Shown: one piece after another, positions 51,882 through 60,482 of the stretch
How the letters are laid out: every line of letters begins with the position of its first letter
Numbering within the stretch: position 1 is the stretch's first letter
DNA from: Rhodospirillaceae bacterium
GTDB lineage: Bacteria; Pseudomonadota; Alphaproteobacteria; UBA6615
Length of the DNA: 64,000 nt
Assembly (NCBI GenBank): GCA_018667335.1
Contig: JABIVD010000028.1
Location: forward strand, 25,354 to 89,353
Direction of reading: 5' to 3'
Position numbers and translations under genes: made by a program
The notes under the pieces: model-generated
Told to the model about the DNA's origin: nothing
What the model saw: only the letters and a program-made list of their open reading frames with translations
Database searches by the model: none

Positions 51882-54800
51882 ATGAATTTGATCTCGGCGT
51901 CCATTCATCGGCCGATCGCGGTCATCGCAGTCGTCATCATGATCATCATGTTCGGCTGGGTGGCGCTGCAGCGCATTCCGATTCAGCTGGCACCCGACGT
52001 GCGCCAGCCCGTGATCATCGTCGACACCTCCTGGCCCGGCGCGTCACCGCTGGAAGTCGAGCGCGAAGTCGTCAACCGCCAGGAAGATGTCCTCAAGGGG
52101 ATCGAGGGCGTGCGCAAGATCGAGAGTCGTGCCCGCACCGGGCGCGCGGATATCACGCTCGAATTCGCGCCGAGCCAGAACATGGATCGCGCATTGTTGC
52201 TGGTGGCCAACCGGTTGGACCGGGTCAGCGGATATCCCGAGGAAACCGACGAGCCGACCCTGCGCACATCGGGCACCGACGACAATGCGATCGCCTGGTT
52301 CGTCCTGCGCCGGAAGGCGGACAACGACCGGGACCTGCTGACCTACGGGGATTTCCTCGAGGACGTGGTCCAGGAGCGGATCGAGCGCATCCCCGGGATC
52401 TCGGGGGTCAACATCTTCGGCGAAACCGAGCGCGAGATGCGGATCATCATGGATCCGGAGCAACTCGCGCAGTTCCGCCTGACCATCAGCGACGTTGTCG
52501 ACCGATTGCGCGCCGAAAACGCCTCGATCTCCGGCGGCGACGTCGAGGAAGGCAAACGCGCCTATGTGGTGCGCACCGAAGGCGATTTTACCACCACCGA
52601 ACAAGTCCTCGACGTGGTGCTGCGCTCGGACGCAGAGCTTGAGGACGGCCGGATCGGCCGAATCACAGTCCGGGATATCGCCCACGTCGAGCTTGGCTAC
52701 AAGGAAGCGCGGGCCCTGCCCCATCGGTTCGACGAGCGCGCCATGGCGTTCAACATGACCCGCGAACAGGGCGCCAACGTGCTCACGGTGATGGACGAGG
52801 TTCGTCGCGTCGTCGCCGACCTCGCGGAAGGCCCTCTCGACCGGGTGGGCCTGATCGTCGAAAATGTGTTCGATGAAACGCTGTATGTGAATTCGGCCAT
52901 CTCCCTGGTGCAACAGAACATCATTGTCGGCGGCATCCTCGCTGCCCTGGTCCTGATGCTGTTCTTGCGTTCCTGGCGCCCGACCCTGGTCGTGAGCCTT
53001 GCCATTCCGGTCTCGGTGATCGGTTCTTTCGTCGCCATGGCCGCATTGGGTCGCTCGCTCAACGTCATCAGCCTGGCAGGCATCGCCTTCGCGGTCGGCA
53101 TGGTCGTCGATGCGGCCATCGTCGTGCTCGAGAACATCTTCCGGCTCCGGCAGGAGGGCTATTCCCGCGCCGAAGCCGCCCAAATGGGCGCATCACAGGT
53201 GTGGCCCGCCGTCCTCGTCTCCTCCCTGACCACTGTCATGGTGTTTATCCCGATCTTGGTCATGGAACTCGAGGCCGGGCAGCTGTTCCGCGATATCGCG
53301 GTCGCGATCTCCGTCTCGGTGTTGCTGTCGCTGCTTGTCTCGGTGACCGTGATTCCCGCACTCGCCAACCGCTTGCTGGTGTCCAGCGCGGCCGAGGGCG
53401 GGAAGATGATGCGCATTCCTCTGCTCGATGACTTCGCGCACGGGTTCGTCACCTTCTGGCAGGATTTCACGCGCATGGTGGTCCGCTCGAAGCTACGGGC
53501 CCTCGTCGTGGTCGGCGCCATCATCCTCGCATCGGGTGCCTTCACCTGGGCGTTCGCGCCAAAGCTCGACTATCTGCCGACCGGCAACCGCAACTTTGTA
53601 TTCGGCTTCGTCAACGTGCCGCCGGGATACAATCTCAGCACCGTCACGGAGATCACCGAGCGGATCGCAAACCGGACCCGCAACCTGTGGGCATCGGAGA
53701 CCGGACCCGAATCCGAGCCCGGTGAGCCGCCCAAGTTCCAACGCTTCATTCGTGTGCCCTTCGCCGGTCGCGCCTTCATCGGCGGCACATCGGTCGACCC
53801 GGCGCGCGCCGCGGAGCTGATCCCGGTCCTGCAGAATGCGGGTCGGCAAGACCCCGGCGTTCTGACGTTCCCCAGCCAGCCGTCTTTGTTCGGACGCTCG
53901 TTAGGTAGCGGGCGAACGATCGATGTCGATATCCGCGGATCTGACCTCGAGCAGATTTACCAGGTTGCGTTCGATGTCTTTATCCGCCTGGCGCCCCGCT
54001 TCCCCTTCAGTGAAGGCAACCAGGTTCGGCCCATCCCCAGCCTGACATTGTCTGCGCCCGAGGTCAGGGTCGAGCCCAACCGCCTGAAACTCGCCGACAA
54101 CGGCCTGTCGGCACGCGCTCTTGGCCAGGCGATCGATGCCTTCAACGACGGCCTGCGGGTCGCCGAGATCACGGTCGACGGCAAACGCATCGATCTGACC
54201 CTGACAGGCACGCCCAATATCATTGACCAGACCCAGGGTATCGGCTCCCTGCCGGTCGTGACCCGTGACGGGCGCATCGTGCCGGTCGAAGGGCTCGCCG
54301 ATGTGAGAATCACGTCGGGCCCAACCGAGGTGCGGCGCGCCGATCGGGCCCGCACGGTCCGACTGCAGGTCCGGCCGAATGCCGATACGCCGCTGCAAGG
54401 CGCGTTCGAGCTGATCCGGGAAGAGATCGTGGAACCGATGCAGGAGGCCGGCCTGCCCGAGGGTGTGAGCATTCGCCTGACCGGGACGGCCGACAAGCTG
54501 TTGGAAACATGGAACGAGCTCGTTATCGATCTGCTGCTGGCAATCGTGATCGTCTATCTGGTGATGGCCGTACTGTTCGAGAGCTTTGTCTATCCGCTGA
54601 TCATTATGCTCACGGTACCCGTCGCGGCCGCCGGTGGCATCGCGGGGCTCGCGGTCCTGAACATCTGGGTTCTGCAGCCGCTGGATATGCTGACCATGCT
54701 GGGGTTCGTGATTCTGACCGGTATCGTCGTGAACAACGCGATCCTGCTGGTCCACCAGACCCTCTATCACATCCGCGAAGACGGCATGAATGCCGACGAT

Positions 54801-55064
54801 GCGATCATGCTGGCGACCCAGAACAGGGTTCGGCCGATCTTCATGTCGACGCTGACTTCGGTGTTTGGCATGTTGCCCTTGGTGGTGTCCCCCGGGGCCG
54901 GATCGGAGCTGTATCGCGGTCTGGGCTCGGTCGTGCTTGGCGGGCTGTCGTTATCGGCCGTGCTCACGTTGGCGATTGTGCCGCCAATGATGTCGATCAC
55001 GGTCGGCTGGCGCGAGCGCAAACGGGACAAGCAGCCCGACCCCAGCCCGACCCCGGCGCAATAG
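51882..55064 (+). CDS. AcrB/AcrD/AcrF family RND transporter permease
   Basis: 1060 aa; SWPGASPLEVE, AVGMVVDAAIVVLENI, GIVVNNAILLV, RVRPIFMSTLT. Confidence 0.95.
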   Translation: MNLISASIHRPIAVIAVVIMIIMFGWVALQRIPIQLAPDVRQPVIIVDTSWPGASPLEVEREVVNRQEDVLKGIEGVRKIESRARTGRADITLEFAPSQNMDRALLLVANRLDRVSGYPEETDEPTLRTSGTDDNAIAWFVLRRKADNDRDLLTYGDFLEDVVQERIERIPGISGVNIFGETEREMRIIMDPEQLAQFRLTISDVVDRLRAENASISGGDVEEGKRAYVVRTEGDFTTTEQVLDVVLRSDAELEDGRIGRITVRDIAHVELGYKEARALPHRFDERAMAFNMTREQGANVLTVMDEVRRVVADLAEGPLDRVGLIVENVFDETLYVNSAISLVQQNIIVGGILAALVLMLFLRSWRPTLVVSLAIPVSVIGSFVAMAALGRSLNVISLAGIAFAVGMVVDAAIVVLENIFRLRQEGYSRAEAAQMGASQVWPAVLVSSLTTVMVFIPILVMELEAGQLFRDIAVAISVSVLLSLLVSVTVIPALANRLLVSSAAEGGKMMRIPLLDDFAHGFVTFWQDFTRMVVRSKLRALVVVGAIILASGAFTWAFAPKLDYLPTGNRNFVFGFVNVPPGYNLSTVTEITERIANRTRNLWASETGPESEPGEPPKFQRFIRVPFAGRAFIGGTSVDPARAAELIPVLQNAGRQDPGVLTFPSQPSLFGRSLGSGRTIDVDIRGSDLEQIYQVAFDVFIRLAPRFPFSEGNQVRPIPSLTLSAPEVRVEPNRLKLADNGLSARALGQAIDAFNDGLRVAEITVDGKRIDLTLTGTPNIIDQTQGIGSLPVVTRDGRIVPVEGLADVRITSGPTEVRRADRARTVRLQVRPNADTPLQGAFELIREEIVEPMQEAGLPEGVSIRLTGTADKLLETWNELVIDLLLAIVIVYLVMAVLFESFVYPLIIMLTVPVAAAGGIAGLAVLNIWVLQPLDMLTMLGFVILTGIVVNNAILLVHQTLYHIREDGMNADDAIMLATQNRVRPIFMSTLTSVFGMLPLVVSPGAGSELYRGLGSVVLGGLSLSAVLTLAIVPPMMSITVGWRERKRDKQPDPSPTPAQ

Positions 55065-55122
55065 CCCACGACGACAGCGGTGTCTCGCCTTTGGTCCCCG
55101 TCGGGCGTACGATGGCACCGTC

Positions 55123-55821
55123 ATGACCGGACCCGGAAACACCCTCGCCGACATCCCGTTTCTCACACCGCTGGATGAGTCTGCCCGCTCTGCGCTCGAG
55201 CAGCGCGCGCGCTGGGTGCGTTACACAGCCAACGACACAATCATCGACCGCGAGACCGAATCCCGCGACGTTTACTTCGTCGTCGAAGGCCGGGTGCGGG
55301 TGGTGAACTTCTCGATTTCCGGTCGTGAGATCACCTTCGACGAGATGACGCCCGGCGGCGTCTTCGGCGAGCTTGCAGCGCTGGACGGGATGCCCCGGTC
55401 AGCCGCCGTGGTGGCCCTGAACGACACTCTCGTCGCATCCATCTCGCCCGACACGTTCGTGAACCTCTTGCGTGACCATCCCGACCTCGCCATCGGCGTA
55501 ATGCAGGAGCTCACCAAGATCGTGCGCACCGCGACCGAGCGGATCATGGACCTAAGCACGCTGGGCGCGCACAACCGGGTGCATTCCGAAATCCTGCGCG
55601 AGGCCCGCGCGCATGCGGATGGCGACGCCAACTCCGCCCGAATCTCACCAATTCCTGTCCATGCCGATATTGCCGCCCGGGTCAGCACCACGCGCGAAAC
55701 GGTTGCCCGCGTTCTGAGCGATTTGACGAAGCAGGAACTCGTCAAACGCGAGAAGGACGCTCTGGTGATTCTCGACCTGGAGCGGCTAGAGGACCTTGTC
55801 GAGGAAGTTCGCGACTTCTAA
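55123..55821 (+). CDS. Crp/Fnr family regulator of the cAMP-binding CRP type
   Basis: FGELAALDGMPRSA nucleotide pocket; recognition helix TTRETVARVL keeps the R-E-x-x-x-R residues of E. coli CRP. Confidence 0.92.
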   Translation: MTGPGNTLADIPFLTPLDESARSALEQRARWVRYTANDTIIDRETESRDVYFVVEGRVRVVNFSISGREITFDEMTPGGVFGELAALDGMPRSAAVVALNDTLVASISPDTFVNLLRDHPDLAIGVMQELTKIVRTATERIMDLSTLGAHNRVHSEILREARAHADGDANSARISPIPVHADIAARVSTTRETVARVLSDLTKQELVKREKDALVILDLERLEDLVEEVRDF

Positions 55822-55862
55822 GTCGCTGTTATTTCAACAATTCTGAATCTTTTTGAACGACC

Positions 55863-55905
55863 TGTGATGCCTGTCACTGGGGTCTGGATGGTTGCGCACT
55901 ACATT
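55863..55905 (+). promoter_or_regulatory. Crp box plus -10 hexamer (class II promoter geometry)
   Basis: TGTGA-tgcctg-TCACT (55863-55878, centre 55870.5); TACATT starts at 55900, 29.5 bp from the centre. Confidence 0.78.
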
Positions 55906-55957
55906 TGGATCAACGGCGACGGATCTTCGCCGCACACCAATGAGAACGGAGCTGAAT

Positions 55958-56047
55958 ATGTCCCGACAAACCCGCATCAACGTCGCCGCTCTCCTCCTGG
56001 CCGCACCGATGGTGCTTGTCGGATTGTCGATGACCTCTGGGTTCTAA
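55958..56047 (+). CDS. Unannotated 29-aa hydrophobic small protein MSRQTRINVAALLLAAPMVLVGLSMTSGF
   Basis: GGAG Shine-Dalgarno 7 nt upstream, basic N-terminus and one TM-length helix; below the ORF-track length cut-off. Confidence 0.55.
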   Translation: MSRQTRINVAALLLAAPMVLVGLSMTSGF

Positions 56048-56097
56048 TTTCGCTGGTGTGATCTTTTCGCACTGATCCAACCTCCTCCTCTGGACTT

Positions 56098-56133
56098 GCG
56101 GCCGGCTCTCACGAGACCGGCCGCCTTTCTTTT
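56098..56133 (+). terminator. Intrinsic terminator closing the short Crp-box transcript
   Basis: gcggccgg-ctctc-ac-gaga-ccggccgc stem followed by ctttctttt. Confidence 0.75.
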
Positions 56134-56153
56134 CAGCCCACCGTTTCGGGCAG

Positions 56154-57620
56154 TCAGAAGGTCCAGCGTCGATTGAGTCCGATCGAAAGTCGGTAATTGT
56201 TGTAGGTGTAGTTGGTGAGCGAGGAGACCTGCCGATAGGCCTCGCCACCGACCGTAAACGTGAACGGTTTCCAGAACTCGCCCACATTGGTGAAAATGCC
56301 TGACCAGGGAATGCCGTAAGTCATCCGGGCCCGCCCGCCCCAGTCATGCCGGGTTTGGGCACTGATGGAAGGATCACGGTCATCATAGAGATCATGGTTG
56401 ACGGTGAATGATGTGAGCAAAAAATCACCGCCACCAAACAACATGGTGTGGGTCATTCCGACCTCTTGCCCCTCATAGGAATTGTAGCTGCGGGCCGCGA
56501 TATTGCGGGTCAGGGTATACGTGAAGCGCAGCCGCTGATGGGGCGTCAGTATCTGCGAGGTTCCGATCTCGACCTCATAATCACGCCCGCTGCGCTCCGT
56601 GGCCGTCAAACTGCTCGTGATGTTGTTGTAGGACTGGTACTTGATGGTCCCGGTGCCAAAGACCGACCAGGTGTTGGAAAGTGCGTAAACCCAGTCGAGC
56701 GTTGCACCCACCGACGTCAGATACTTCTCGCGCGACAGATCAACGCGCTCATACAAGATACGTGGCGTGACCGTCGCCGGTGCGAAATCCAGCTCATATC
56801 CGAAATCAGCAGTGATCGCCCCCAGGTCGAGATCGTCCTGCTGAACCTGCTCACCTTGATAGAAAACCAGCCCGCCAAGCATCTTGTGCTGCTTCTGCAA
56901 GCCAAGGTCATGCTCAAAGGAAAGTTGCGCCAGCGCATTCATCGACACGTCGTCCTGGCGCGCGGAACTGCCCGTCGTTCGGGTCGGCAGATCCGCGGCG
57001 AGGCGAATTTCGGATTTCGGTGACGCGTTCCGGTTCCAGTCATACTGGGTGGCGAAATTCATCGCGAAGGTGAAGATCGTCTTCTTGCGGCGCGATGCGA
57101 TCTGATCGAGATACTGTCCGATCTGGCTCCGCAACGCGGGCTCCAGGTCCAGTTCCTGCAACGCGAGCAACTCGCGCTCCGCTTCATCGAGATTGTCGAG
57201 ACGGAACAGCACGATCGCAAACAGGACGCGGATCACCGCGAGGTCCGGTCGAATGAGCAGAACGCGTTCCAGGGTGGCCCCGGCACCGCGCACATTGCCC
57301 TCGCGAATCTGGGTCAGGGCATAGCGGACATTGAGTTCAATATTATCGGGATCTTCCAGGACCTGCTCGAAGGTTACGGGCGGGCCCTTGCTGAACGCCT
57401 CAAGGTCGAGAGCATCCTGGGCCGTGCGTTCGACGTCACGCTGGGTCTCGATCAATTCGCGGACATCGCTTTCGCGCGATTCAGTATCCGACTGCTGCGC
57501 ATGCACCGTGCTGGCAAACACGGTGGCGCCGACAATCACCATTCCATAGCGAAAACCGCATCGCGCGCACCCAAGGGCACGCACTAGAAAACTCGAGACC
57601 CGCACCAACAAAAGCCCCAA
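56154..57620 (-). CDS. Outer-membrane TPR plus beta-barrel protein (Slam/DUF560, type XI secretion-like)
   Basis: Signal peptide, TPR-like LERVLLIRPDLAVIRVLFAIVLFRLDNLDEAEREL, about 300 aa of amphipathic strands ending RRWTF; start may be 57542. Confidence 0.72.
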   Translation of the reverse strand: MGLLLVRVSSFLVRALGCARCGFRYGMVIVGATVFASTVHAQQSDTESRESDVRELIETQRDVERTAQDALDLEAFSKGPPVTFEQVLEDPDNIELNVRYALTQIREGNVRGAGATLERVLLIRPDLAVIRVLFAIVLFRLDNLDEAERELLALQELDLEPALRSQIGQYLDQIASRRKKTIFTFAMNFATQYDWNRNASPKSEIRLAADLPTRTTGSSARQDDVSMNALAQLSFEHDLGLQKQHKMLGGLVFYQGEQVQQDDLDLGAITADFGYELDFAPATVTPRILYERVDLSREKYLTSVGATLDWVYALSNTWSVFGTGTIKYQSYNNITSSLTATERSGRDYEVEIGTSQILTPHQRLRFTYTLTRNIAARSYNSYEGQEVGMTHTMLFGGGDFLLTSFTVNHDLYDDRDPSISAQTRHDWGGRARMTYGIPWSGIFTNVGEFWKPFTFTVGGEAYRQVSSLTNYTYNNYRLSIGLNRRWTF

Positions 57621-57691
57621 CGTATGGGGGTATTAAGCATGATGCAGCAAACCGGGGCAAGCGCGGGAGGCCGCTGTAACCCTTTGAGATA

Positions 57692-59953
57692 TCATTTCAT
57701 TTCTGCGACGTGAACGCCTTTCCAATCCTCCGGCGGTGGGTCGAAGGAATAGTGGTATATGCGCTCGGCGTAGAGTTCGTATAACGCCTCGAGGGTGCCA
57801 GACATCTCGGCACAGACGTTGAGCGCATCCTGCGCCCCATCCCAATCACGAACACGATATGCATTGAGCATTTTCTCGTGCTCACGCCGCAAGGCCTGAA
57901 ACTCATCGCTGGCCGCTTCATGTGCATCTCCCAGCAGCGCAAAGATACGAACGGCCTCGCGCTTACCCTTCACAGCGATCAGGTCCAGTTCGAGAAAGGC
58001 GAAGTCATCCGCCACTTCGCTCTGCGTCGATTCACCGACAATGATGGGCACCCCGTAGGGACTCGATTGCCCTTCAAGCCGTGAGGCGAGATTGACCGCG
58101 TCGCCCAGCACCGAATAATCGAACCGCTGATCGGAGCCCATGTTTCCGACGACGCACTGACCGGTGTTGAGACCAACACCGACCGCGATGGTGATCGCGT
58201 CCGGATCTTCCGCCCGGCGCTCTTCGTTGACCCGCTCCAACGCGTGCAGCATGGCCAGCGCAGCATCACACGCATGGGCCGCGTGGGCCGGATCATCGAT
58301 CGGCGCATTCCAGAACGCCATGATGCAATCGCCCATATATTTGTCGATGGTGCCGTCGCGCTCGAGAATTTCGGCGGTCAGCGGCGTCAGCAGGCGATTG
58401 ATCAATGTCGTCAGTGCCTGCGGATCATCGCGGTACCCCTCGGAGATGGATGTGAACCCGCGGATATCGCAGAACAGCAAGGTCATCTCGCGCGTTTCGC
58501 CACCCAGCCTGAGCCGCTCGGGTTGATCGGCGAGCTGTTCGACCAGGGCCGGCGACAGATACTGCCCAAAGGCTGTGCGTATCTGGCGGCGCTGAGTCTC
58601 GGACTGCAGGTATGTGATCAGCGAACTCGACAAATACACCACGAGCACCACCAGCGCCGGAAACACCGGATCGATCAGGACGCCCGCCTTCGAGAACGCA
58701 AACCAGCCGGCGGCCACCCCTGCTGTGATTGCAGCCAGGCAAACGACGGCGCTGGCGGCGACACCGAGCTTGGGCAGCAACAACACCAGGAAAACCCCCA
58801 GCAGCGCGAAGGCCGCCAATTCCGCCCCCAGCGTCCAGTCAGGCCGCGTCAGAAAACTACCGTTGAGGATTTGCTCCACAAGTTCCGCATGTACTTCGAC
58901 CCCTGGGATGATCGAATTGAGCGGCGTCGCACGCAAGTCGAACAACCCCGGCGCACTCGTCCCGACCAGTATGATCGCACCCTCGAGACCGTCATCAGCC
59001 TGGAGCGGTTCGGCATCCGACCAAAGCCGCCAGGCGGATAGATATCGCGCCGGCTCATGGCCGGTGTAACGCAGCCACACATGACCATCGCCGCTCGTAG
59101 GCACCCGCAACCGCCCGATCCGAATATCTGCAATGCCGGAGCTCTCGTCGACCCCGCCCTCGCCGCTCGCATCGGACATGCGGATATTATATCCCTGCGC
59201 GCCCTGCGCGACGCGCAACGCCTCGGCGCCCAACGTCGGATAGAGAGGCGGCAGCTTGAAGGGATCGTCATAGGTCGGTGTCGTCCCCGGCGCCACGTAC
59301 TGCGTGAACAACGGCACACGGCGGATCAGCCCATCCGCGTCGGCCTCGAAATTTATGTTGCCGATACCGGCCGCTGCCGCCCCGAGCGCCGGTAGATTGG
59401 AAATCGCAGCACTGTATGCCGGCAGAAACGGATGCGGCGGAGATCCGCCAAGCCCCACGCCGGCCTTTGGCGGGGGCGGCGGTGCATTTTCGCGGGAGCG
59501 CGTAAACGTAAATCCCGCAACCACCCGGCCGCGCGCGAATGCCTCGGCCAGCATCTGGTCATGGTCCGGCAAGGCCGCAATTCTGGCCCGCAGGTTTGCA
59601 TCGTCGGTCCCTTCAGGCCAGTTCGCCGCAACATTGGCCGGAGACGTCCGGTCCGGCTCAGCAAACAACACGTCGAACACAACAACGGCGGCGCCCGCCT
59701 CATGCAGGCGGTCCACAAGGTCTGCGATCCGCGAGCGAGGCCAGGGCCACTGCCCAATCCGCGCCAAACTTTCATCGTCGATGTCCAGAATGCGCACCGG
59801 CAACGCGCTGTCATAAACGCGCGGCTCAATCCGCTGATAGGTGTCGAACGTCCACAACCGGGCCAGTTGCACGGGTTGCGGGTCCTCAACCCGCAGCAAC
59901 AGCGCAACGACGAGGATCAGAAGTGGAACAATGCGAGCTTTCCAAGAGGTCAT
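57692..59953 (-). CDS. CHASE2-domain adenylate cyclase
   Basis: IDDESLARIGQWPWPR and FDVLFAEPDR (CHASE2), three TM, LFCDIRGFT, IDKYMGDCIMAFW, VLGDAVNLASRLE. Confidence 0.93.
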   Translation of the reverse strand: MTSWKARIVPLLILVVALLLRVEDPQPVQLARLWTFDTYQRIEPRVYDSALPVRILDIDDESLARIGQWPWPRSRIADLVDRLHEAGAAVVVFDVLFAEPDRTSPANVAANWPEGTDDANLRARIAALPDHDQMLAEAFARGRVVAGFTFTRSRENAPPPPPKAGVGLGGSPPHPFLPAYSAAISNLPALGAAAAGIGNINFEADADGLIRRVPLFTQYVAPGTTPTYDDPFKLPPLYPTLGAEALRVAQGAQGYNIRMSDASGEGGVDESSGIADIRIGRLRVPTSGDGHVWLRYTGHEPARYLSAWRLWSDAEPLQADDGLEGAIILVGTSAPGLFDLRATPLNSIIPGVEVHAELVEQILNGSFLTRPDWTLGAELAAFALLGVFLVLLLPKLGVAASAVVCLAAITAGVAAGWFAFSKAGVLIDPVFPALVVLVVYLSSSLITYLQSETQRRQIRTAFGQYLSPALVEQLADQPERLRLGGETREMTLLFCDIRGFTSISEGYRDDPQALTTLINRLLTPLTAEILERDGTIDKYMGDCIMAFWNAPIDDPAHAAHACDAALAMLHALERVNEERRAEDPDAITIAVGVGLNTGQCVVGNMGSDQRFDYSVLGDAVNLASRLEGQSSPYGVPIIVGESTQSEVADDFAFLELDLIAVKGKREAVRIFALLGDAHEAASDEFQALRREHEKMLNAYRVRDWDGAQDALNVCAEMSGTLEALYELYAERIYHYSFDPPPEDWKGVHVAEMK

Positions 59954-60005
59954 GCCAGCAATCTAGCCCAGTGCGCGATTCCGGAGAAAGCCGGTGCATG
60001 CCCGG

Positions 60006-60158
60006 CTAGAGCGTAACGGCCGCAACCGAGATCGTTCCCAGGATCAGGAACGAGACGATGACCCACTGGAGATAGAGGCGCAGCACGAACCTGCTGGCGT
60101 GACGGCCTGCAAATCGATGCAGCGTCAAATGATGCGAATGGGCGGGTCGGGGCGTCAT
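60006..60158 (-). CDS. Unannotated 50-aa small membrane protein MTPRPAHSHHLTLHRFAGRHASRFVLRLYLQWVIVSFLILGTISVAAVTL
   Basis: ATG at 60158, His/Arg-rich N-terminus and a C-terminal TM helix; ends 53 nt before the cyclase start. Confidence 0.5.
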   Translation of the reverse strand: MTPRPAHSHHLTLHRFAGRHASRFVLRLYLQWVIVSFLILGTISVAAVTL

Positions 60159-60221
60159 GGTCTCGTCGTCCGGTAGCAGATGATATCTGCCACCAAGGTG
60201 CACCGCCCTGCGCGGCCTGTC

Positions 60222-60252
60222 TGTGACATCCATCACTGTGACCCCCGTCACT
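60222..60252. promoter_or_regulatory. Two abutting Crp boxes in a divergent promoter
   Basis: TGTGA-catcca-TCACT (60222-60237) and TGTGA-cccccg-TCACT (60237-60252); TAGGTT at 60274 is 29.5 bp from the second centre. Confidence 0.8.
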
Positions 60253-60304
60253 TCCAACGACGTCGATCGTCGCTAGGTTCAGGGCACAACAAATGATGGA
60301 GAAC

Positions 60305-60430
60305 ATGATGATCGACACGCAACACAACGCCCGAACGCTAATCAGACACGGCAGCCTGATCATAACAGGCTTGGTCACAGGTGGACTGGGTGCGGCGCTC
60401 CTGGTCCTGCTGGCTGCAGCCACAGGCTGA
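60305..60430 (+). CDS. Unannotated 41-aa small membrane protein MMIDTQHNARTLIRHGSLIITGLVTGGLGAALLVLLAAATG
   Basis: GGAG Shine-Dalgarno immediately upstream (second ATG optimally spaced); one Gly-rich TM helix. Confidence 0.55.
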   Translation: MMIDTQHNARTLIRHGSLIITGLVTGGLGAALLVLLAAATG

Positions 60431-60482
60431 CCGACAACGGAACGTCTTTTCCTCGCGAACTGAACAACTTAGGATGCCCGCC

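Follow-up and report, generated by a model that had tools for sequence, protein, structure and literature searches.

Predicted class II boxes of a CAP-type regulator beside crp and a CHASE2 cyclase module in a marine Rhodospirillaceae bacterium

In R. centenum, the CAP homologue CgrA was footprinted on a TGTGA-N6-TCACA site located 5' of RC1_3785-gcyB-gcyC-cgrA, and a divergent small open reading frame (ORF) was found to be CgrA-dependent (PMC4681086). In S. meliloti, Clr activates smc02178, encoding a FecR-domain protein, and smc02177, encoding the TPR protein NsrA, beside the CHASE2 cyclase gene cyaD1 (PMC5498481, PMC13001267); the helix of Clr reads RPKVNR and its motif is HGTYHC-N4-GRWACA (PMC10187061). 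Here, three TGTGA-N6-TCACT boxes are described that lie close to a crp gene and a CHASE2 cyclase module in 64,000 nucleotides of DNA from a Rhodospirillaceae bacterium (contig JABIVD010000028.1 of GenBank assembly GCA_018667335.1). This whole stretch is hereafter called the window, and coordinates are counted from its first letter. Judging from the sequence, we consider it likely that the boxes are the sites of the adjacent CAP-type regulator Crp, which would act from class II positions at boxes 1 and 3, with box 2 most likely belonging to a divergent promoter.

The likeness to the CgrA system lies in an alphaproteobacterial CAP homologue that is encoded beside cyclase accessory genes and in a TGTGA-N6-TCAC-type box that is placed in a divergent intergenic region and also drives a small ORF on the opposite strand; a feed-forward activation logic fits both systems. 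This comparison was made on the published description and motifs. CgrA prefers cGMP and carries RT in place of the RS pocket motif, whereas here RSA is combined with adenylate-type cyclase residues. R. centenum has one perfect palindrome, in contrast to the two boxes overlapping by one base and the conserved TCACT asymmetry found here, and, as a further difference, crp is a separate transcription unit in the window, its nearest predicted target being a micro-peptide gene. With the clr-cyaD1-nsrA-smc02178 locus of S. meliloti, the window shares the same four-gene set of CRP-family regulator, CHASE2 cyclase, TPR/beta-barrel protein and FecR protein, a box in the promoters of the FecR and TPR genes, activation by the regulator and the production of cAMP (both predicted here). 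Gene order and orientation differ, as do the hosts, a legume symbiont there and a free-living marine bacterium here. Unlike the helix and motif of Clr, the helix RETVAR and the N6 box TGTGA-N6-TCACT point to DNA recognition of the CAP/CgrA type. As in a CRP-linked CHASE2 module, the gene set was recovered with Pfam, and boxes 2 and 3 were found between the divergent cyclase and FecR units.

Class II promoters of E. coli, at which CAP is centred at -41.5, include galP1, melR and the divergent malX-malI pair with its shared site. The promoters of the window resemble these in the 16-bp inverted repeat, the Y6/R11 pattern, the 22 bp to the second base of the -10 hexamer and the weak -35 element; they differ in that K101 is not kept in the regulator, T16 is fixed and the divergent pair is placed on two overlapping sites instead of one shared site. 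We know of no described CAP-family promoter pair of such a one-base-overlap tandem build, and our literature search on overlapping CRP sites at divergent promoters, which was not exhaustive, returned nothing relevant. The system differs from those of CgrA and Clr in its overlapping tandem boxes, in the fixed TCACT and in a micro-peptide target that is universally linked to crp; the wiring is already known from CgrA and Clr, and the finding is solid and largely expected.

Three boxes and their promoter spacing

The boxes were located on the plus strand at 55863-55878 (box 1, TGTGATGCCTGTCACT), 60222-60237 (box 2, TGTGACATCCATCACT) and 60237-60252 (box 3, TGTGACCCCCGTCACT), exactly where an earlier note on this DNA had placed them; the one-base overlap that it had described for boxes 2 and 3 was found as well, T60237 being common to both. 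Each box agrees with a TGTGA-N6-TCACA-type inverted repeat at 15 of 16 bases and has a pyrimidine at position 6 and a purine at position 11, as in CAP sites, the consensus being TGTGAY-N4-RTCACT. In the 64-kb window, TGTGA-N6-TCACT was observed three times against 0.06 expected, and none of 100 dinucleotide-preserving shuffles gave three. The core GTGA-N6-TCAC by itself was not enriched in the window (3 observed versus 1.04 expected, with 8 of 100 shuffles reaching 3), so that the evidence is carried by the full box, its clustering within 4.4 kb, its intergenic position and its conservation. Under a weight matrix trained on relatives only, with the window boxes left out, boxes 1, 2 and 3 scored 25.2, 22.7 and 25.7 bits, respectively, and the best other independent site in the 64 kb scored 9.9 bits, which bears out the earlier impression that the window holds no other comparable box.

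Two candidate sites were rejected. The 9.9-bit site CGTGATCGACATCATT at 54986 on the minus strand lies inside the RND pump gene, scores below all training sites and falls within the shuffle range. The other candidate, TGTGATCTTTTCGCACT at 56058, was dismissed as a fourth box because neither its spacing nor its half-site is right and its score is below 8 bits; it is part of the short transcript of box 1, in the conserved 3' portion.

The predicted -10 hexamers of the plus-strand promoters are TACATT (55900-55905), 21 nt 3' of box 1, and TAGGTT (60274-60279), 21 nt 3' of box 3. Both begin 29.5 bp from the centre of their own box, and the claim that these two and the minus-strand hexamer CACCTT all keep this distance was confirmed on the sequence. 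TAnnTT is present at the box 1 offset in relatives, and at the box 3 offset five other lineages have TAGGTT, TAGATT, TACTTT or TAAGTT. Across 24 promoter instances from relatives, with Crp identities down to 40%, high information was found only in columns 1-5, 11-16, 38, 39, 42 and 43; the last four (T38, A39, T42 and T43) represent TAnnTT exactly 21 nt after the box, and the spacer is unconserved. By the published class II criterion, the second base of the -10 is 22 bp away from the site (PMC10187061), which is equivalent to the 21-nt spacing between the boxes and the predicted TAnnTT hexamers. Of the class II spacing that had been proposed for all boxes, the part concerning both plus-strand promoters is thus supported by the 24-instance conservation, and the part concerning the minus-strand promoter is plausible but less certain. 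A sigma-70 scan of the two intergenic regions revealed no consensus promoter, which agrees with a dependence on an activator, and the -35 regions are poor (CTGGGG and CTTCCA).

Position 16 of the box is T in all plus-direction promoters and also in loci unrelated to this one from other marine metagenome-assembled genomes (MAGs; L009, L013, L020 and L047). With the box centred at -41.5, this position coincides with -34, a T position of the -35 hexamer TTGACA, and the next base is G or T. We infer that the TCACT asymmetry may be a remnant -35 contact on the promoter-proximal side and not a half-site preference of the protein. A T at -34 would meet the need of sigma-70 region 4 for a -35 T, which would explain why the deviation from TCACA depends on orientation. 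The earlier note had treated TCACT as a deviation shared by the three boxes; it is present in all of them, but trivially so in box 2, where the terminal T is accounted for by being at the same time the base with which box 3 begins.

The genomes closest to the window are seawater MAGs, and in many metagenomes from seawater 0.99 of the words sampled from the window were found. Orthologues of crp were taken from metagenome contigs and from contigs encoding exact homologues. In every orthologue fetched (93% down to 40% Crp identity), the box lies just 3' of crp, with its six spacer bases varying, and it is always followed on its 3' side by a hydrophobic ORF of 29-44 aa with a good ribosome site. 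L097, L099, L100 and L101 (Crp 62-70% identity) retain box 1 together with the peptide gene but are without the CHASE2 island, so that no stable linkage of crp with the cyclase module was found; most CHASE2 loci of other alphaproteobacteria are without an adjacent crp. The CHASE2 island would be an accessory target. In the 267 kb around crp orthologues, the refined pattern was found nowhere but at the two expected promoters and at one site in L089. Seven TGTGA-N6-TCAC[AT] sites were counted in 1.08 Mb of other alphaproteobacterial CHASE2 loci, where the core occurs 1.19 times per 64 kb, equal to the shuffle rate.

In L089 (Crp 40% identity), boxes at 3140 and 3361 stand in series 3' of crp, each with its own single-transmembrane (TM) ORF (39 and 44 aa). 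In L047, a MAG labelled Rhizobium sp., the box TGTGAGCCTGGTCACT at 5673 is followed after 21 nt by TATGGT just 5' of a FecR gene, the cluster of which comprises outer-membrane protein, FecR and CHASE2 cyclase genes without an adjacent crp.

Transcript boundaries and the divergent region

Assembled contigs from 16 marine metatranscriptome runs were mapped on the locus. In these runs, no RNA contig covers 55802-55917 or 60169-60296, and so none covers the boxes. Upstream of box 1, an RNA contig spans 55570-55801 in crp; downstream, contigs start at 55918-55921 in seven runs (at 55920 in four of them, with fusion to adapter in run X23), and an eighth run has a start at 55930. The box 1 transcript contigs end at 56081-56137, at or before the terminator, and extend to 56198 and 56409 in X21 and X22. 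On the box 3 side, contigs start at 60297/60298 in the 2016 libraries and in X35, a 2025 library, and at 60306-60314 in several 2025 libraries, where they are adapter-fused at 60306 in X34 and X37. The transcript of the 41-aa peptide reached a k-mer depth of 589 in X37, with its end near 60492, and an X22 contig (60308-62300) links the micro-protein transcript with the FecR gene. On the minus side, contigs are unbroken from 59900 or 59925 to 60165 across the 50-aa ORF and the cyclase start codon; the stop is at 60165 in three runs, and one run extends to 60168. The plus-strand peptide transcripts are abundant in seawater metatranscriptomes, the minus-strand one being present at low depth only. 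No RNA run containing L083 turned up in a search that was directed at the minus-strand start.

About ten 5' bases are usually lost in RNase H second-strand protocols. Since the contigs are unstranded and lose terminal bases, they bound the start sites and do not map them; the plus-side contig starts, 6-20 nt downstream of 55912 and 60286, are compatible with starts predicted at these positions. From the uncovered gaps it follows that the DNA holding the boxes is not transcribed, that the transcripts on either side of it are initiated separately and that crp and the peptide gene are separate units. As a side observation, the 41-aa peptide transcript, which ends at about 60492 in X37, continues through FecR in X22, and condition-dependent termination or processing before FecR is possible.

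Boxes 2 and 3 have the arrangement GTGA-N6-TCAC-T-GTGA-N6-TCAC, their centres being 15 bp apart (about 1.5 helical turns), and this tandem with its one-base overlap is kept in L001, L081/82, L083, L096 and L098. On the minus strand, the candidate -10 hexamer CACCTT (60200 down to 60195) is found 21 nt after box 2. The corresponding hexamer reads CACTCT in L001, CATTTT in L081 and CAATTT in L083 at the same 21-nt distance, and TATGTT in L096 and TATACT in L098 at 20 nt. A2 and T6 are kept in all six hexamers, which supports a class II reading of the box 2 minus-strand promoter. An alternative -10, TATCAT (60185-60180, minus strand; predicted start 60173/4), is not conserved and is absent from L083.

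The regulator and the weighing of explanations

The crp gene (55123-55821, plus strand) encodes a CRP/CAP-type regulator of 232 aa (Pfam cNMP_binding 1.3e-21, HTH_Crp_2 5.7e-12), the best PDB relatives of which are GlxR, M. tuberculosis Crp, S. meliloti Clr and CAP. Its identity to E. coli CRP is 26%, with R180/E181/R185 aligning with R/E/R, and its recognition helix RETVAR aligns with R180-R185 of CAP and with RETVNK of GlxR; the R-E-x-x-x-R helix that had been attributed to the adjacent Crp was thereby established. The pocket motifs are G71-E72-L73 (GEL) and R82-S83-A84 (RSA). At its specificity positions, the CHASE2 class III nucleotide cyclase (57692-59953, minus strand; Pfam CHASE2 4.7e-61, Guanylate_cyc 4.1e-22) has the Lys of GTIDKYMGD and the Ser of FDYSVLG; the adenylate cyclases CyaB/CyaC show this pattern, and the guanylate cyclase Cya2 has Glu and Gly instead. 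On the basis of this Lys/Ser pair, the enzyme is predicted to be an adenylate cyclase, with cAMP as the likelier ligand, and cAMP is most likely what Crp binds.

In the mechanism that we propose, a Crp dimer at -41.5 would replace the poor -35 element at boxes 1 and 3 and recruit RNA polymerase. Box 1 would drive the transcript of about 220 nt that encodes the 29-aa membrane peptide, and box 3 would drive the gene of the 41-aa membrane peptide, from which read-through would reach the FecR-domain gene. The opposite-facing box 2 would most likely serve the 50-aa peptide gene together with the CHASE2 cyclase and the outer-membrane protein. A positive loop would be formed in which the cyclase makes cAMP, cAMP acts on Crp and Crp raises the expression of the cyclase module. 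Binding, ligand, sign of regulation and exact starts are predicted in this scheme from the observed sequence, conservation, spacing and transcription boundaries.

Several points weigh against this reading. The unstranded contigs begin 6-20 nt (plus) and 20-23 nt (minus) 3' of the predicted starts, and the minus-side RNA ends (60165-60168) fit TATCAT better than CACCTT. With only 15 bp between their centres, two dimers would encroach on each other's flanking contacts, and co-occupancy of boxes 2 and 3 is doubtful. Of the CAP class II contacts, K101 is replaced by Thr and K100 by Asp in Crp, according to an alignment which at 26% identity is moderately reliable; moreover, activating region 2 (H19, H21, E96 and K101), the part of CAP in contact with the N-terminal domain of alpha, is not matched, and the N-terminus of Crp does not align with CAP. 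The activation contacts of Crp may therefore differ from those in E. coli, which leaves the geometry unaffected.

The minus-strand observations could also mean, as a tentative alternative, that boxes 1 and 3 are class II sites and box 2 is not, with TATCAT as the -10 of the minus-strand promoter and a start near 60173/4. Box 3 would then occupy a class I position (about -70.5/-71.5), and box 2, lying near -56, would compete with box 3 or tune its occupancy; we regard this alternative as the less likely one. TATCAT agrees with the consensus at 5 of 6 bases and CACCTT at 2 of 6, and the minus-side contig ends, three of them at 60165 and the fourth at 60168, are 5-9 nt away from a start at 60173/4, resembling the offsets of 6-12 nt at both plus-strand promoters in the same 2016-2017 libraries. 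This is opposed by the lack of conservation of TATCAT, L083 having no A2/T6 hexamer there, whereas a CAnnTT-type hexamer at the class II offset occurs in all four close relatives and TATGTT or TATACT, 1 nt off, in two more distant ones; furthermore, the offsets of contig starts depend on the library (60297 versus 60306-60314), so that an offset of about 20 nt is possible. Between CACCTT and TATCAT, we lean slightly towards the class II reading. The CACCTT promoter that the earlier note had derived from box 2 thus gains from the recurrence of the offset hexamer in relatives and loses from RNA ends nearer to TATCAT. That the tandem is a dedicated bidirectional device is an idea we hold with reservation: dimers on opposite faces would each fire their own class II promoter, or one dimer at a time would toggle between the cyclase arm and the FecR arm.

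Activation by the adjacent Crp has also to be weighed against readings that concern all three boxes. A site spanning -49 to -34 would occlude the -35 as well, and CAP-family repression occurs at some promoters (PMC10187061); the boxes might hence be repressor sites at which Crp, lying over the -35, shuts off otherwise constitutive promoters. This is improbable in view of the poor -35 regions and of the failure to detect a consensus promoter. Exact helical phasing to the -10 is kept over deep divergence, which repression by occlusion does not need, the homologous CgrA and Clr sites activate their targets, and in seawater no other contigs of the locus are as abundant as those of the peptide transcripts, with depths of up to 589. 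The motif by itself does not identify the binding protein, which might instead be a Crp/Fnr-family paralogue whose gene lies in another part of the genome; this is a quite unlikely case, given that box 1 lies directly 3' of crp in every orthologue fetched (40-93%), whatever the neighbours, and that RETVAR is the type of helix that reads GTGA. Chance short palindromes would be compatible with the unenriched 8-base core in the window, but are barely credible for a full box seen 3 times versus 0.06 expected, the position of which is kept in many lineages while the spacers vary.

With Crp as the predicted activator, the locus offers the testable core of a cAMP-receptor regulon for a marine Rhodospirillaceae lineage that is abundant and uncultured; this core consists of the box consensus, a fixed promoter geometry and three micro-protein targets. 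The CgrA/Clr paradigm, known from a cyst former and from a symbiont of legumes, is thereby extended to free-living bacteria of the ocean. The most conserved of the predicted Crp targets is the tiny crp-linked membrane peptide gene and not the cyclase island; the rest of the biology is as expected for a CAP-family activator.

Neighbouring genes and minor features

A terminator scan placed a terminator-like hairpin at 55811-55826 (plus strand), at the crp stop codon and between crp and the box 1 promoter. The short transcript (55912-56133, plus strand; about 220 nt), with its 5' end predicted at 55912, has a conserved 5'-terminal hairpin (55914-55932), contains the ORF of the 29-aa hydrophobic membrane peptide (55958-56047), which is kept in relatives, and ends at an intrinsic terminator (56098-56133). 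A conserved, anti-Shine-Dalgarno-like stretch, TTTCGCACTGATCCAACCTCCTCC, lies between the stop codon of the peptide and the terminator, and the short RNA may be dual-function. A permissive Rfam search over 55000-61000 gave no match.

The minus-strand gene at 56154-57620 encodes an outer-membrane protein with TPR and beta-barrel (NsrA/Slam-like; Pfam TPR_19 2.2e-8, with weak SlipAM and OMP_b-brl). The ORF of a 50-aa single-TM micro-protein (60006-60158, minus strand; MTPRPAHSHH...) is located 5' of the cyclase on the same strand and is kept in six lineages. On the plus strand, the ORF of the 41-aa single-TM micro-protein (60305-60430) has a GGAG ribosome site at 60298-60301, which is conserved; the ATGs at 60293 and 60296, 5' of this ORF, are unconserved. 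It is followed by the gene of a secreted FecR-domain protein (SMc02178-like; 60483-62093, plus strand; Pfam FecR 5.6e-11).

Directly 5' of the cyclase ATG (59954-59975, minus strand), the 14-nt block CTGGGCTAGATTGC is invariant in six lineages (window, L001, L081, L083, L096 and L098) within variable surroundings. Its TAGATT, followed by 6 nt and the A of ATG, would fit the -10 of a leaderless cyclase mRNA. An X22 contig ends at 59956 at the cyclase start and other contigs read through, so that a translational element is also possible.

The block of cyclase, outer-membrane protein and FecR genes lies between the crp-peptide pair and an HpcH aldolase gene (56154-62093 in the window) and behaves like an island gained or lost by insertion/deletion. 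Two paralogues of FecR are present in both L096 and L098. In L095, an insertion sequence element (HTH_Tnp_1 and rve transposase; 11803-12932) is inserted in the CHASE2 cyclase gene, which is intact in the near-identical sister L096. The two closest MAG contigs, L001 and L024, were used for intergenic alignments only; both are rearranged or chimeric, L001 at 9284-9400, where a truncated cyclase is joined to a truncated crp, and L024 at about 8000, where the cyclase begins at residue 352 beside unrelated sequence.

In L095-L100, the flanks of which are full, a pair of genes for a membrane-fusion protein and an RND efflux pump lies directly 5' of crp, and a small membrane-peptide gene comes after crp. 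The window has the pump pair followed by crp in the same way (51882-55821), and L101 shows only a short ACR_tran fragment before crp. It is pure speculation that the peptide could be AcrZ-like at the pump or have a role in cyclic-nucleotide export.

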